Below are positions 4,174-9,513 of a DNA stretch of 55,433 nt, one piece after another. Source of the stretch: Candidatus Saccharimonadales bacterium (GTDB lineage Bacteria > Patescibacteriota > Saccharimonadia > Saccharimonadales > UBA10212); contig DASSFC010000020.1 in the NCBI GenBank assembly GCA_035694865.1, forward strand, positions 1-55,433, in the 5' to 3' direction. Numbering within the stretch: position 1 is the first letter of the stretch; each line of letters opens with the position of its first letter. A program made the position numbers and the translations under genes. The notes beneath the pieces were generated by a model. It searched no databases. It saw only the letters and a list, made by a program, of their open reading frames with translations, and was not told where the DNA came from.

Positions 4174-4196
4174 CACTCTTGACAGGCGAGTGCCAA
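4170..4196. promoter_or_regulatory. CIRCE operator copy 1 (TTAGCACTC-N9-GAGTGCCAA)
   Basis: 17/18 match to the CIRCE consensus TTAGCACTC-N9-GAGTGCTAA. Overlaps the -35 box of the hrcA promoter. Confidence 0.85.
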
Positions 4197-4208
4197 CGTA
4201 TCTACAAT
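4179..4208 (+). promoter_or_regulatory. Sigma-70-type promoter of the hrcA operon (TTGACA-18 nt-TACAAT)
   Basis: TTGACA at 4179..4184 and TACAAT at 4203..4208, embedded between the two CIRCE copies. Confidence 0.6.
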
Positions 4209-4244: not shown

Positions 4245-4949
4245 ATGACGGATAGACAAGCCAAGATTTTACAGGCGATAGTCGAGCAATACGCCGAAGT
4301 CGCCAGCCCGGTTGGCAGCAGTTTGCTGGCCAAGGTTTTTGATGTTTCCAGTGCCACCGTGCGGGCCGAAATGGCTGCCTTGGAGCGAGAGGGTTACATT
4401 AAACAGCCGCACACCAGCGCCGGCCGGGTGCCTACAGATAAAGGCTATCGATTTTACGTCAACCAGCTGGCCGAAAACACTGAATTACCGGGAGAAAAAC
4501 GGGCCCAGCGGGCTCTGACGGCTCGCGTCCAGCATGGTGGTTTACCAGAGCAGACCATCCGCAACGCAGTTGATACGCTGGTAGAGCTGACCCACAACCT
4601 GGGTATGGCGACCATCGGGAATCAGCTTTACATGAGCGGCTTATCCAATTTGTTCGGCCAGCCGGATTTCATGCATCCGGGTCAGGTCCAGGAGGTTGCG
4701 AGGCTCTTAGACAACCTGCAGCCCTGGCTGAACGAGGCCGCGCCGAACGAACCGCTTAGCGTATACATCGGCCGCGAGAACCCGATAGGCCGCAGTGCCG
4801 GCGCCAGCCTGATAATCAGCCGCTTCCGCAGCCCATTCAGCGACCGCAGTTATATCGGTGTTCTGGGGCCGACCAGGCAGAGCTATAAAGATGTCATGAG
4901 CCTGGTCGGCCGCGCCGGCCAAGCCCTGGAGGAAACGCTATATGTCTGA
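4245..4949 (+). CDS. hrcA: Heat-inducible transcription repressor HrcA (short, 234 aa)
   Basis: N-terminal wHTH segment SSATVRAEMAALEREGYIKQPHTSAGRVPTDKGYRFYV. CIRCE elements upstream; grpE-dnaK-dnaJ downstream. Confidence 0.85.
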   Translation: MTDRQAKILQAIVEQYAEVASPVGSSLLAKVFDVSSATVRAEMAALEREGYIKQPHTSAGRVPTDKGYRFYVNQLAENTELPGEKRAQRALTARVQHGGLPEQTIRNAVDTLVELTHNLGMATIGNQLYMSGLSNLFGQPDFMHPGQVQEVARLLDNLQPWLNEAAPNEPLSVYIGRENPIGRSAGASLIISRFRSPFSDRSYIGVLGPTRQSYKDVMSLVGRAGQALEETLYV

Positions 4950-5175
4950 AACAGTTAAATCTAGTGGAACCTATGATCACTTTACTAATGTTTTCTATGC
5001 CTCGCACGAACATGATCCGGAGGCTTTGGCATCTGCAAAGGCCGTAAATGATATGTTCAATCAATGTCTTATTAACCTTGGTATAGGTGACCCCAGTCAA
5101 TTACCTCAGGAAATTAGAGAATACCTTGAAAAAGAAGCTGAAGAAGTACTTAAGATGGGAGCACACCATGACTAA
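4942..5175 (+). CDS. Hypothetical 77-aa protein wedged between hrcA and grpE
   Basis: The ATG overlaps the hrcA stop (ATGTCTGA) and its stop overlaps the grpE ATG (ATGACTAA). GC is clearly lower than in the neighbours. No recognisable motif. Confidence 0.4.
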   Translation: MSETVKSSGTYDHFTNVFYASHEHDPEALASAKAVNDMFNQCLINLGIGDPSQLPQEIREYLEKEAEEVLKMGAHHD

Positions 5176-5632
5176 GAAGCCGACAATCAAAGAATTGGAA
5201 CATAAAATCGGTGAGCTGACCGAGGCGCTGCAGCGCGAACGGGCCGACGCCGAGAACTTGCGCCGCCGAACTCAAGAAGAAAAATCTAGGTTAGGTGAGT
5301 TCTATAAAGCTATGGTTATCCAGGAACTCCTCCCGGCTCTAGATAATCTTGAGCGCGCCTTTAAACACACGCCCAAAGAGCTCAAGGACAATGAGTATGT
5401 CAAAGGTTTAAGAAGTGTCATGAAGCAATTCGAACAATGCTTTGCCCAGCTTGGGGTCAAACGGATTAAAACCGTGGGAGAGGTGTTTGACCCCAGACTG
5501 CACGAAGCAGTCCACATGGAGGAAGGCAACGGCACGGTTGAAGTTGTTTGCGAGGAACTTCAACCGGGTTACCTCCTGGGTGACGAAGTTATCCGCCATG
5601 CCATGGTCAAAGTTAAGATGGAGAAAAAGTAA
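5168..5632 (+). CDS. grpE: Nucleotide exchange factor GrpE
   Basis: Coiled-coil N-terminus followed by LLPALDNLERA and DPRLHEAV motifs. I chose the internal ATG at 5168 (MTKKPTIKELE...) rather than the 5087 ORF start. Confidence 0.9.
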   Translation: MTKKPTIKELEHKIGELTEALQRERADAENLRRRTQEEKSRLGEFYKAMVIQELLPALDNLERAFKHTPKELKDNEYVKGLRSVMKQFEQCFAQLGVKRIKTVGEVFDPRLHEAVHMEEGNGTVEVVCEELQPGYLLGDEVIRHAMVKVKMEKK

Positions 5633-5868
5633 TGAGCAGACAGGAACGAATAAACACACCAAACGGCGACACTTTCAGGCCGGGTGAGGATTATTGGCCA
5701 AAACCAAAAATCCCAGCCACAGGTGAAACTAGCGAAGATCCTAAACCGGCAGTGACGGAAGCAGCCCTATCAATTAAAAGGCTACTCGGCAATCAAAGGT
5801 TAAGCCGTACCGAGGCTCAGGGCGCAAGAATACCGGTAAAGAGAAGAGAGGAGAATTCAGATGGCTAA
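5632..5868 (+). CDS. Hypothetical 78-aa protein between grpE and dnaK
   Basis: The ATG shares a base with the grpE stop (TAATG) and its stop overlaps the dnaK ATG (ATGGCTAA). Hydrophilic with no motif. Confidence 0.4.
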
Positions 5869-7789
5869 GATTATAGGAATCGATTTAGGAACAACCAACT
5901 CCGCGATGGCGGTGATGCAATCCGGTAAGCCGGAAATCATCGCCAATAGCGAAGGCAACCGCACTACGCCGAGCGTGGTAGCGATTAATAAAAACGGCGA
6001 GCGGCTGGTCGGCCAGGTGGCTAACCGCCAGCGCGTCACCAACCCGACCAACACCATTTTTGGAGTTAAGCGCCTGATTGGCCGCAAGTTTGAAGATAAA
6101 GAGGTCCAGCGTGACATCGAGCTGATGCCGTATAAAATCGTCAAAGCCGGTACCGGCGTAAAAGTAGAGATGGCCGGCAAAGAATATAGCCCCGAAGAAG
6201 TCAGCGGCATGATTTTGAGCAAACTTAAGGCTGATGCAGAGGCCTTTTTGGGCGAGCCGGTTACAGAGGCCGTGATTACCGTGCCGGCGTACTTTGATGA
6301 CAGCCAGCGGCAAGCTACCAAGGACGCCGGCAAAATCGCCGGCCTGGAGGTCAAGCGCATCATCAACGAGCCGACGGCCGCCGCCCTGGCCTACGGCTTA
6401 GATAAAGGCAAAGAAGAGAAAATTGCCGTCTTTGACCTGGGCGGCGGCACTTTCGATGTTTCAATCCTGCAATTGGGCGAAGGTGTCTTTGAGGTCTTAA
6501 GCACCAACGGTGATACCCACTTGGGCGGTGAGGACTTCGATATGCGTATCGTCAACCACTTCGTCGAGCAATTCAAAAAAGAGTCCGGTATAGATGTTAA
6601 AGACGACAAAGCGGCCATGCAGCGGCTCAAAGAAGAGGCCGAAAAAGCCAAGAAAGAGCTGTCAACAACGGAGGTAGCTGATATCAACCTGCCATTCCTA
6701 ACTGCTGACGCCGAGGGGCCAAAGCACTTTGAGTACAAACTGACCCGCGCCAAACTGATTGAGCTGGTCCAGGACCTGATTGACCAAACGGCTGTGCCAT
6801 GCGAAAAGGCTATCAAAGACGCCAAGCTGACAGCAAAGGACATCAATGAAATCGTCCTGGTCGGTGGCATGACCCGCATGCCGGCAGTTGTCGATAAGGT
6901 CAAGCAAATCTTCGGCAAAGACCCCTTGCAAGGAGTTAACCCTGATGAAGTCGTCGCCATCGGCGCGGCCATCCAGGGTGGAGTGCTGCAGGGCGATGTC
7001 AAAGACGTGCTGCTTCTGGATGTCACGCCACTGTCTTTAGGAATCGAGACGCTTGGAGGAGTTACTACCAAACTGATCGAGCGTAACACTACAATCCCGA
7101 CCAGCAAGAGCGAGGTTTTCAGTACCGCAGCTGACAATCAGAACAGCGTCGAAATCCACGTTTTACAGGGTGAGCGCGAGATGAGCGCCGACAATAAATC
7201 GCTCGGCCGATTTATCCTAGACGGTATTCCGCCGGCGCCGCGCGGTGTGCCGCAGATTGAGGTTGCTTTTAACATCGATGCCAACGGTATTTTAAATGTC
7301 ACCGCTAAAGACAAAGGCACCGGCAAGGAGCAGAGTATTACCATCCAGGGCAGCGGCAATTTAGATAAGGCCGAGGTAGAGAAAGCTGCCAAGGATGCCG
7401 AAGCCCACGCCGAAGAAGACAAGAAAAAACGCGAAGCCATCGAGGCCAAGAACATGCTCGAGAACGCGGTTTACCAGGCCGAGAAGATGAAGACCGACTA
7501 CAAGGACAAATTGTCTGAGGAAGATGTCAAAACTTTGGATGAGGCCGTCAGCGAGGCCAAAACACATCTTGAGGCAACCGATAAAGAAGAGCTGGAAAAG
7601 GCCGCTAAAGAGCTGAGTGACAAGCTCATGCCGATTGGCTCCAAGATGTACGAAGCTGCCCAGGCAGAATCTAAGCCCGAAGCTGAGAGCGGCGACAAAC
7701 CGGACGACAAGAAATCCGACAAAGACGAGCCGATTGAAGGCGAAGTCGTCGACGACAAAGATAAGAAAGAAGAAGGTGATGCCAAGTAA
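5861..7789 (+). CDS. dnaK: Chaperone DnaK (Hsp70)
   Basis: [17 protein letters not shown] and [10 protein letters not shown] signatures; full length at 642 aa. Confidence 0.98.
7735..7758 (+). repeat. Direct repeat copy 1 (TGAAGGCGAAGTCGTCGACGACAA), the dnaK 3' tail
   Basis: Identical 24-mer recurs at 8237..8260. Encodes EGEVVDDK. Confidence 0.95.
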
Positions 7790-8273
7790 AGGGTTGGAGA
7801 AATTACACAGTCATGAAATGGTAGGCAAATCTCTTGAAGAGTTGCTTAGACTATGTTTTGCAAATTATCCATTTTCCGGAATTGAGACTGAAGCAGACTT
7901 ACCAGTGGAGGTTTCGCGTCAACTTCAAATGGATTGGGCTAGCTCAAGAGAGCATCCTGAGGGTTACGGTAGAGAATTTCTAATTGTCAGAAATACCGCC
8001 AAAGCTCACCTGCATGGAGATGAGTATGTCACAATCCCTGGGACAGAAAGCTTCAGCATAAAGCACACTTATTTGGTCAGCAATCCGACTGATGATCCTC
8101 GTGTTTCCAGGTTTGAGGAAAGAAAAAATCGGGATTTTGCCTCTGGGTCATCAAATGCAAGCGGGTCGCTTTCAGAACCTGAATCCCTCGATCTAGTAAA
8201 AGAATATTTGTTACCCGCTTTTCGACCGGACTTGGCTGAAGGCGAAGTCGTCGACGACAAGAAAGAAGGTTAG
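7779..8273 (+). CDS. Hypothetical 164-aa protein inserted between dnaK and dnaJ; its C-terminus copies the DnaK tail
   Basis: The ATG at 7779 overlaps the dnaK stop by 11 nt. The body is about 40% GC versus about 50% in dnaK. The protein ends [12 protein letters not shown], encoded by the duplicated 24-mer. Confidence 0.5.
8237..8260 (+). repeat. Direct repeat copy 2 of the dnaK tail 24-mer
   Basis: Perfect match to 7735..7758. The similarity continues imperfectly (GAAAGAAGG) for about 10 more nt. Confidence 0.95.
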
Positions 8274-8435
8274 ATGAAGCCAGGTAATTTCCTGCGCTAC
8301 GTAGTTTTGCCGGCGGCCATGCTGGCCGCCGGCGTCAAGCTAGGTGTCAAATACGCCAAAGATAACTATGTATCTAAGGACCGCCGCTTCATCGAAGCCG
8401 AAATCCTAAAGCGAGAGAAACAGAAAAATGGCTAA
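8274..8435 (+). CDS. Possible 53-aa small protein ([25 protein letters not shown]...) upstream of dnaJ
   Basis: The ATG immediately follows the TAG of the preceding ORF, and its stop overlaps the dnaJ ATG (ATGGCTAA). One hydrophobic segment. It falls below the ORF-track length cutoff. Confidence 0.3.
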
Positions 8436-9513
8436 GCGGGACTACTATGAAGTCCTGGGCGTTGGTAAAAGTGCCAGCGCCGATGAGATTAAAAAAGCCT
8501 TCCGCCGTAAGGCTATCGAATACCACCCTGACCGCGGCGGCGATGAGACTAAATTTAAAGAAGTCAATGAAGCTTACGAAGTCCTCAAAGATGACTCTAA
8601 GCGCAAGCGCTATGACCAGTTCGGCCATGCTGGCGTTGGCTCAAGCGCCGCCAGCGATGGTAATCCGTTCGCCGGCTTTGGCGGTTTTGGCCAGGGTCAG
8701 GAATTCAATTTCGACTTCGGTGATTTAGGCCTGGGCGATATTTTCGGCAGCTTTTTTGGCGGTGATTTCAGCAGTGGCCGCCGTGGCCAAAAAAGCCGCG
8801 GCCAGGACGTCGAAACTAGTGTCGAAATCAGCTTTGAGGATGCCGTTTTTGGTACCGAAATCAGCTTGAGGCTGACTATGCAGGATACCTGCCACCACTG
8901 TTCGGGCACGACTGTCGAGCCCGGTTATAATCTAAAAACCTGCGATACCTGTAAGGGTAAAGGACAAGTTACCAATGTAATGCGGACAGTGTTTGGTAAC
9001 ATCCAGCAGGCGGCTCCGTGCCCGACCTGCCACGGCAGCGGCCGCGTGCCCGAAAAAATCTGCACAGTTTGTAGCGGTAAAGGCACAGAACGGCGTACCC
9101 AGAATATTAGCCTTAAAATACCGGCCGGTATCGATGACGGGGCGACCATCCGGCTGCGCGAGCACGGCGAGGCTATCGCCCGGGGGCCAAAAGGTGATTT
9201 ATACGTTAACGTCCGCGTCAGACCGCACAAAAAATTCACCCGTGAGGGCGACCTGATTTTATCGACCGAACACATCGGTATGGCTGATGCCGCTTTGGGC
9301 ACCGAGATCGATGTCGACACCGTCGACGGACCGGTCCGCATGAAAGTACCAGCCGGTACCCAAAGCGGCACCGACTTCAAATTATCCGGTCACGGCGTGC
9401 CACATCTAAATAAAAAATCCCGGGGTGCCCACATCGTGACCTTAGCTGTCCATACGCCCACCAAACTCAGCCGCGGCCAGCGCGATGCCCTCGAATCCCT
9501 CCGCGGCAATTAA
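8428..9513 (+). CDS. dnaJ: Co-chaperone DnaJ
   Basis: J domain with HPD (YHPDRGG), a G/F-rich linker, and four CxxCxG zinc-finger repeats. Confidence 0.97.

Follow-up and report, generated by a model that had tools for sequence, protein, structure and literature searches.

The 55,433-nt contig DASSFC010000020.1 of a Candidatus Saccharimonadales bacterium (GenBank assembly GCA_035694865.1), taken over its whole length and here called the window, was found to carry an hrcA-grpE-dnaK-dnaJ chaperone operon in which a 164-aa open reading frame (ORF), designated P0001, is bracketed by two copies of the 3'-end of dnaK. Probably, a horizontally acquired gene was recently inserted where dnaK meets the gene that follows it, the target was duplicated in the process, and the locus is the scar of this event. 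Relatives of the same genus have the empty site, the body of the inserted gene has foreign homologues and is fused to the old dnaK tail, and displaced copies of the dnaK end recur in other members of the order.

The duplicated junction

A first-pass annotation of this DNA had described a perfect 24-bp duplication of the dnaK tail followed by weaker similarity, and a common acidic motif at the ends of the two encoded proteins. These observations are correct, and the similarity extends further than had been noted. The 24-mer TGAAGGCGAAGTCGTCGACGACAA occurs in the window as two exact copies on the + strand (7735-7758 and 8237-8260), no third match was found in the window at up to 3 mismatches, and a 24-mer repeat was not seen in any of 100 dinucleotide-preserving shuffles. 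The two copies share one codon register and encode the C-terminus of DnaK and that of P0001, respectively. Beyond the 24-mer, GAAAGAAG--AAGGTGATGCCAAGTAA (7765-7789) and GAAAGAAGGTTAGATGAAGCCAGGTAA (8261-8287) agree at 21 of 27 aligned positions, an equal or higher score being reached by 0 of 9621 purine-matched 35-mers from the window. This extension of ~27 bases crosses the dnaK stop codon and enters the first codons of the next gene, which encodes a small hydrophobic protein (P0002). The start of this gene, ATG AAG CCA GGT AA, pairs with GTG ATG CCA AGT AA at the start of P0001. Judged from these alignments, the duplicated target is ~51-55 nt long and runs from the last 14-17 codons of dnaK through its stop codon into the small gene, of which it includes the first 4-5 codons. 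A 2-nt gap in the upstream copy removes the old stop, so that dnaK now runs on to GDAK-stop. The features of the junction are as follows.

7735-7789, + strand: upstream junction copy, made of the perfect 24-mer (7735-7758) and a diverged extension (7759-7789); dnaK terminates in it, and the inserted ORF starts in it
8237-8287, + strand: downstream junction copy, with the ancestral dnaK 3'-end, the TAGATG stop/start junction and the first codons of the small gene
7745-7756, repeated at 8247-8258, no strand assigned: perfect 12-nt palindrome GTCGTCGACGAC inside the 24-mer (VVDD codons)
5861-7789, + strand: dnaK, 642 aa, 77-94% identity to the DnaK of relatives; the last 3-4 codons (GDAK-stop) come from the upstream junction copy
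7779-8273, + strand: P0001, chimeric 164-aa ORF; alternative start GTG at 7776
7791-8234, + strand: foreign body of the insert, ~445 nt, GC 43.9%, homologous to the metagenomic proteins P0004 and P0005
8274-8435, + strand: P0002, small hydrophobic protein of 53 aa, encoded immediately 3' of dnaK throughout most of the family

The palindrome contains a SalI site and is found in the dnaK tail of many relatives. It might be a spot favouring breakage, recombination or template switching, which is offered here only as a lead.

A transposable element would be recognised by terminal inverted repeats, by a transposase or descent from an element that encodes one, and by a short duplication of the target, the typical length of the latter being 2-14 bp for transposons. 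This candidate was rejected: the only inverted repeat joining the two ends of the insert is the palindrome of the 24-mer, the single encoded protein is not a transposase, and the duplication measures 24 to ~55 nt.

Empty sites and the ancestral dnaK end

The dnaK loci of 26 relatives were compared, and 12 further genomes were reached through the small hydrophobic protein. In most of the family a protein of this kind (49-62 aa, MKPANFLRYV...) begins at the dnaK stop codon or a few bases from it. The downstream copy in the window, together with the following GAAGGCGAAGTCGTCGACGAC AAGAAAGAAGGTTAG ATGAAGCCAGG, aligns almost base for base with this junction in the relatives; the L013 junction, GAAGGCGAAGTCGTCGACGACGACAAGAAAGAAGACTAA GTGAAGCCAGC, is an example and matches the downstream copy plus the following ATGAAGCC. 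Because of this alignment the downstream copy was identified as the ancestral end of dnaK.

An empty site, consisting of dnaK, the small gene and dnaJ with one copy of the tail and a gap of 150-156 nt, is present in L003, L005 and L030, all of the same genus as the source of the window. The single-tail site that the first-pass annotation had proposed to seek in relatives therefore exists, and the arrangement of the window is not one shared by all of them; P0001 had no match in any of 40 relatives. Across 39 genomes the gap between dnaK and dnaJ ranges from 74 to more than 2000 nt and holds mostly unrelated small ORFs. No homology was detected between P0001 and these other variable ORFs of the relatives, including those of L004 and L006.

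Deletion between the 24-nt direct repeats would yield exactly the empty site that is observed, and the arrangement could in principle be an old one from which the relatives lost the ORF. Such a history is highly improbable. Many independent losses would be needed for an ORF that is absent from all 40 relatives, from every other fetched locus and from the public collections scanned, 24 perfect bases are not expected from an old duplication, and the atypical GC content at third codon positions (GC3; 36% against ~60%) argues for recent import.

A foreign gene body fused to an old DnaK tail

The DNA between the two copies has a GC content of 43.5%, compared with 52.8% for dnaK, and the contrast is sharper at GC3, where the inserted ORF (7779-8235) has 36%, dnaK 64% and dnaJ 59%. 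The low GC content reported earlier for the insert is thus real, although the figure of about 40% given for it is not. The ORF had also been called an orphan, which does not hold in the strict sense, as the search for homologues recommended at the time has now returned two metagenomic proteins. A full HMMER scan of 1.84 billion representatives gave P0004 (156 aa, 49% identity, E 1.5e-37, residues 13-149), and a profile search added P0005 (154 aa, 58% identity to P0001). A word-indexed search of 5.8 billion proteins returned the query P0001 alone, pattern scans of genome and metagenome contigs for P0001 (protein and alignment) gave no match, and tblastn found none in phage and plasmid records.

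P0001, P0004 and P0005 are similar over their full length, including an invariant 23-residue motif and an NPT.D motif, and on this basis they form a rare accessory protein family without a name; no match to the P0001 family was found in Pfam, PHROG, NCBIfam or PADLOC. Synonymous divergence (dS) is saturated among the three homologues. AlphaFold2 supplied with the three sequences gave an alpha+beta model of moderate confidence (pLDDT 69.9, pTM 0.60) in which the DnaK-like tail is disordered and exposed, the prediction from 2 sequences being poor (pLDDT 41.5). Foldseek detected no fold similar to the P0001 model in the PDB and BFVD libraries, and no Rfam match was found at 7500-8600.

P0004 and P0005 are free-standing genes that end in WPAY(K/N)xS(E/D)LTK-stop. 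P0001 reads LPAFRPDL and then switches to the DnaK tail two codons short of the end of the family. Since the homologues end in LTK and carry no DnaK tail, the DnaK-like tail of P0001 is a product of fusion and is not native to the family. Nucleotide similarity of the insert to the homologues starts at ~7791-7796. The insert is thus a coding piece that lacks ~3 first codons, the last 2 codons and the stop, and that brought no flanking non-coding DNA. P0001 is accordingly a chimera of three parts, namely start codons of the small gene (first 4-5), a foreign body and the old DnaK tail (last 12 codons). The empty sites, the absence of P0001 from the 40 relatives, the ancestral nature of the downstream copy and the tailless homologues all bear out the insertion at the dnaK 3'-end with target duplication that the first-pass annotation had put forward. 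A decayed partial duplicate of the 3' region of dnaK itself was considered and rejected, no repeat joining the body of the insert to dnaK and the body having foreign homologues.

Both homologues are located on short metagenome contigs, neither of them near dnaK. On the P0004 contig (L054, in a record labelled soil) a ribbon-helix-helix-like ORF, a ParE toxin gene and a 150-aa ORF precede P0004, while P0005 starts 29 nt past a tRNA-Arg(GCG) gene. These tRNA-gene and toxin-antitoxin settings suggest a mobile accessory gene pool. L054 also contains tRNA-3'-end-like fragments between genes (GTTCGAATCC...CCA-like, at ~255-290, 850-875 and 1930-1960) and a repeated CTCCCCAGCCAAG motif, likewise between genes. 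ARAGORN detected no whole tRNA at the fragments, and fragments and repeats together look like stacked integration scars.

The insert could be the remnant of a site-specific integrative element, with the 24-mer as att core, a replacement dnaK end brought in by the element and an integrase that was lost later. Elements that target gene 3'-ends do leave low-GC cargo between direct repeats (attL/attR) while the target keeps a working 3'-end; here, too, low-GC foreign DNA lies between direct repeats, diverged sequence flanks a perfect core, the core contains a 12-nt palindrome, and a toxin-antitoxin module neighbours one homologue and a tRNA gene the other, both typical settings of islands. In contrast with such elements, the 478 nt between the repeats hold no recombinase gene, inverted ends or non-coding DNA, only one truncated coding sequence, and this gene body continues in frame into the sequence on either side. 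A gene junction lies within the repeat, whose similarity runs past the core into the start of the next gene, which fits a duplicated target better, and different parts of the tail are involved in the other cases known from the order. Within the window, with no further gene between the repeats and with similarity exceeding the core, the stretch does not classify as a site-specific integrative element, and this origin is considered quite unlikely.

An artefact of assembly or a strain chimera, in which the contig would join DNA of different organisms at a short repeat, was considered as the source is a metagenome-assembled bin (606 kb, 51 contigs, 2.2% estimated contamination). However, a 24-nt repeat is short compared with assembler word sizes (contig names of related records carry k141), both junctions are in frame, and the same architecture occurs in independent assemblies. 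Furthermore, the gene would have needed a dnaK 24-mer on either side in the foreign organism already, and no such copy accompanies the homologues. There is very little chance that the locus arose in this way.

Proposed origin of the locus

The insertion into the dnaK/small-gene junction is best pictured as follows. A promoter-less piece of ~445 nt, which matches the coding sequence of a rare accessory gene nearly exactly from end to end, entered the junction. The upstream copy now finishes dnaK and keeps EGEVVDD, its purine-rich KKEE codons followed by GTG/ATG serving as the start of the newcomer, and the downstream copy, which is the old dnaK end, has become the 3'-end of the newcomer and would still deliver ribosomes to the TAGATG of the next gene. 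The duplication may have been retained since both the DnaK motif and the stop/start junctions are preserved by it, and the insertion was presumably tolerated because the motif and the hand-over of ribosomes to the next gene are kept. Imported DNA could have been joined by illegitimate or short-homology recombination along one of two routes: a template switch that returned upstream of its point of departure, or homology-facilitated illegitimate recombination with dnaK as anchor and a donor tail allele.

Two points weigh against this explanation. The first 24 nt of the copies are perfect and the next ~30 nt contain a 6-nt indel, a 2-nt indel and ~4 substitutions; this divergence is uneven for one recent event and needs a donor tail allele, gene conversion or selection on the downstream copy. 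Moreover, the analysis yielded no donor genome. The perfect 24 nt beside the diverged distal ~30 nt could be accounted for by a donor allele, because in the relatives the first part of the dnaK end is nearly invariant and the distal tail is hypervariable. A sliding-window mosaic test of dnaK gave no clear switch of nearest relative, all relatives being only 75-90% identical in DNA.

The locus is of interest as it shows, base by base, how a tightly packed essential operon in an ultra-small genome can take up a foreign gene without breakage. Duplication of the junction has a side effect, the instant creation of chimeric proteins that bear the terminus of another protein, and the chaperone operon of Saccharibacteria is a good natural system for studying the growth of operons and the birth of new protein ends.

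Recurrence in the order

Displaced copies of the dnaK end were found in other genomes. In L022, which belongs to another family and is devoid of the small hydrophobic gene, dnaK is immediately followed by an 84-aa ORF whose end reads RRGELVDDQGEE, a stop codon and ATG. This end is a 36-nt copy of the dnaK end that takes in the stop and the next start, and none of 200 shuffles scored as high. L048 contains two versions, 88% identical, of a 314-nt segment; the first begins 18 nt ahead of the dnaK stop, and the second, further downstream, is preceded by GEVVNNDDKKDK and a stop codon. L048 is a second genome in which the end of dnaK has moved together with an adjacent gene. At this locus (0-880 nt past the dnaK stop) the duplication consists of the dnaK end and a 97-aa ORF, and it flanks the small hydrophobic-protein gene on both sides.

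A 68-aa ORF of L014 ends in PDKKEE-stop followed by ATGAAGCC, resembling the SDKKEE-stop of DnaK. A 60-aa ORF of L034 ends in KKVVDDKKGE-stop with the usual codons GTCGTCGACGAT; the DnaK of L034 itself stops early (EGEVVDEK-stop) and uses other codons. When ORFs of at least 40 aa were searched for GE[VIL][VIL] in their last 16 residues, leaving out the ORF of the window and L009, the motif was present in 9 of 107 dnaK-dnaJ ORFs (39 genomes) compared with 0 of 327 control ORFs elsewhere in the window; as six of the nine belong to the small-protein family, they do not count as nine separate events. From these comparisons, the insertion-scar architecture recurs in other Saccharimonadales.

Other elements were observed between dnaK and dnaJ. 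A protein of ~105 aa, CutA-like by eye (M..FCQLWLTCA...EADKI...LHSYDTFVL), recurs in L010, L011, L015, L025, L033, L045 and L052. In L013 (~640-775 nt past the dnaK stop), L034 and L040 a hairpin-forming element of ~90 nt (CCCCAGCACnAAAAACTTGATG...GGTTTTnGTnCGGGG), conserved across three genera, precedes dnaJ and separates a stub of the dnaJ start from the working start. The stub, ATGGCnAArCGnGATTAyTAC, encodes MAKRDYY with an Arg codon CGN, and the working start uses AGR. The element looks like a small mobile hairpin that carries a replacement dnaJ start.

Relation to known systems

Insertion scars that leave a gene end displaced are known, and the form found here recurs in one order. In the arrays of orphan C-terminal modules and immunity genes of Rhs and CdiA systems, as at dnaK, a short and conserved coding stretch is repeated and new DNA lies between the working gene and the displaced old 3'-end, and the arrangement recurs and can stack. 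Unlike in those arrays, the displaced piece here amounts to ~12 codons of a housekeeping chaperone and is fused to the incoming gene, with no logic of toxin and immunity. Homology-facilitated illegitimate recombination after natural transformation also places foreign DNA beside a conserved anchor gene with a short-homology joint, and pairing with a donor allele would explain a perfect core beside a diverged distal tail; its classical outcome, however, is replacement or deletion of recipient DNA, whereas here there is duplication. Finally, promoter-less units of gene size lie in series behind one promoter, as in integron gene cassettes, but neither an attC-like hairpin between the repeats nor an integron integrase next to the locus was detected.

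The shared tail and the small hydrophobic protein

The DnaK of the window is a full-length bacterial DnaK with a conserved acidic C-terminal motif, and P[IV]EGEVV is conserved in the DnaK of almost all of the 26 relatives. The C-terminus of bacterial DnaK has been described as a conserved, disordered acidic motif that is a possible auxiliary client-binding site of debated importance (PMC7918210, citing Smock et al. 2011). The tail resembles the EEVD end of eukaryotic Hsp70, which engages tetratricopeptide repeat (TPR) co-chaperones and class B J-proteins, in being an acidic, presumably disordered and conserved extreme C-terminus. It differs in that the motif is internal (EGEVVDD followed by a K/E-rich stretch) and no EEVD-COOH is present: DnaK ends in ...KKEEGDAK and P0001 in ...DDKKEG, and neither is a tail of the EEVD type. 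We know of no dedicated partner of the bacterial DnaK tail, and in particular of no TPR partner. The earlier suggestion that P0001 could compete for or share such a partner found no direct support in the sequences. The shared tail of P0001 is explained as a by-product of the insertion, inherited by position.

A DnaK-like ending is also seen in the small hydrophobic protein (49-62 aa, ...AGVKLGIKYAqdhYVxKDRKFIEGEVV...), which lies directly 3' of dnaK in most loci of the family (8274-8435 in the window; L003-L016, L030-L053) and has no match among Pfam or NCBIfam families. In many genera its tail is F[IV]EGEV[VI]. In L016 a perfect 19-mer, TGTAGAAGGCGAAGTTGTG, encodes both PVEGEVV of DnaK and FVEGEVV of the small protein, in L009 the two tail stretches match at 22 of 26 nt, and in L010 both tails are GEVI, encoded by different codons. 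In the alignment of the small proteins F39 is invariant, I40 and E41 are nearly invariant (>=90%), and the DnaK-like segment is among the best-conserved parts. In the genus of the window the tail has drifted to FIEAEIL.

The tails of P0001 and of the small protein could have been selected for engaging the targets of the DnaK tail, the candidates being the substrate-binding domain of DnaK, DnaJ, clients or another partner; in that case the two proteins would be decoys, adaptors or preferred clients. The only hints of such a function come from the DnaK-like segment of the small protein, which is well conserved at F39, I40 and E41, persists across genera and reaches GEVI in L010 through different codons, and from the downstream 24 nt, all intact while the rest of the duplication has diverged. 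The P0001 tail is also predicted to be disordered and exposed, and in Pseudomonas putida the tail motif of DnaK has a part in fitness and in the binding of the disordered N-terminus of a toxin (PMC7918210). On the other hand, the position of the insertion fully accounts for the tail of P0001, both homologues lack it, the ORF is carried by one genome only, and identity over 24 nt can reflect recency alone. The drift to FIEAEIL in the same genus and the want of a known dedicated partner also speak against this proposal, which seems rather unlikely.

In a broader and equally doubtful scheme, the dnaK end would be a recurrent landing pad in Saccharimonadales at which every insertion passes the old tail on to the gene that arrives and tails become stacked, first that of the current DnaK, then the young tail of the ORF and then the old tail of the small protein, with FIEGEVV of the small protein under selection and all tails presented to a common binding site. 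If this were true, a hydrophobic and possibly membrane-anchored peptide, together with a new protein, would give the bacterial DnaK tail a partner logic. A functional DnaK-like tail of the small protein would in any case provide a handle on the poorly understood C-terminus of bacterial DnaK.

Layout of the operon

The order of genes is hrcA, a 77-aa ORF, grpE, a 78-aa ORF, dnaK, P0001, P0002 and dnaJ. Features other than those of the junction are listed here.

4179-4208, + strand: sigma-70-like promoter match, the strongest of the region (TTGACA-18-TACAAT, 11/12), upstream of hrcA
4245-4949, + strand: hrcA-like ORF, first gene of the chaperone operon, named from its position and from reading of the sequence only
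5087-5632, + strand: grpE; homology to relatives begins at ~residue 28
8428-9513, + strand: dnaJ; start ATGGCTAAG, in overlap with the stop codon of the gene before it

The true start of grpE is probably the ATG of MTKKPTIKE. No promoter-like or terminator-like site was found on the + strand between dnaK and dnaJ. The ORFs of dnaK and P0001 overlap by 11 nt, the stop of P0001 directly adjoins the start of the small gene in TAGATG, and the end of the small gene overlaps dnaJ in AATGGCTAA; purine-rich K/E tail codons, GAAAGAAGG, precede the starts of both P0001 and the small gene. Such overlapping or abutting stop-start junctions, with their purine-rich stretch, would fit translational coupling. 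A programmed frameshift was considered and rejected: the frame of P0001 is open from 7617 across the end of dnaK, but it is likewise open in the relatives, as a reflection of the K/E/D codon composition.

Another small ORF, of 78 aa, is located between grpE and dnaK (5632-5868), where it overlaps grpE as TAATG and dnaK as ATGGCTAA. No counterpart was found in the dnaK loci of the 26 relatives. Across the order the gap between grpE and dnaK varies from 1 to 1011 nt, which makes this junction a second insertion hotspot.

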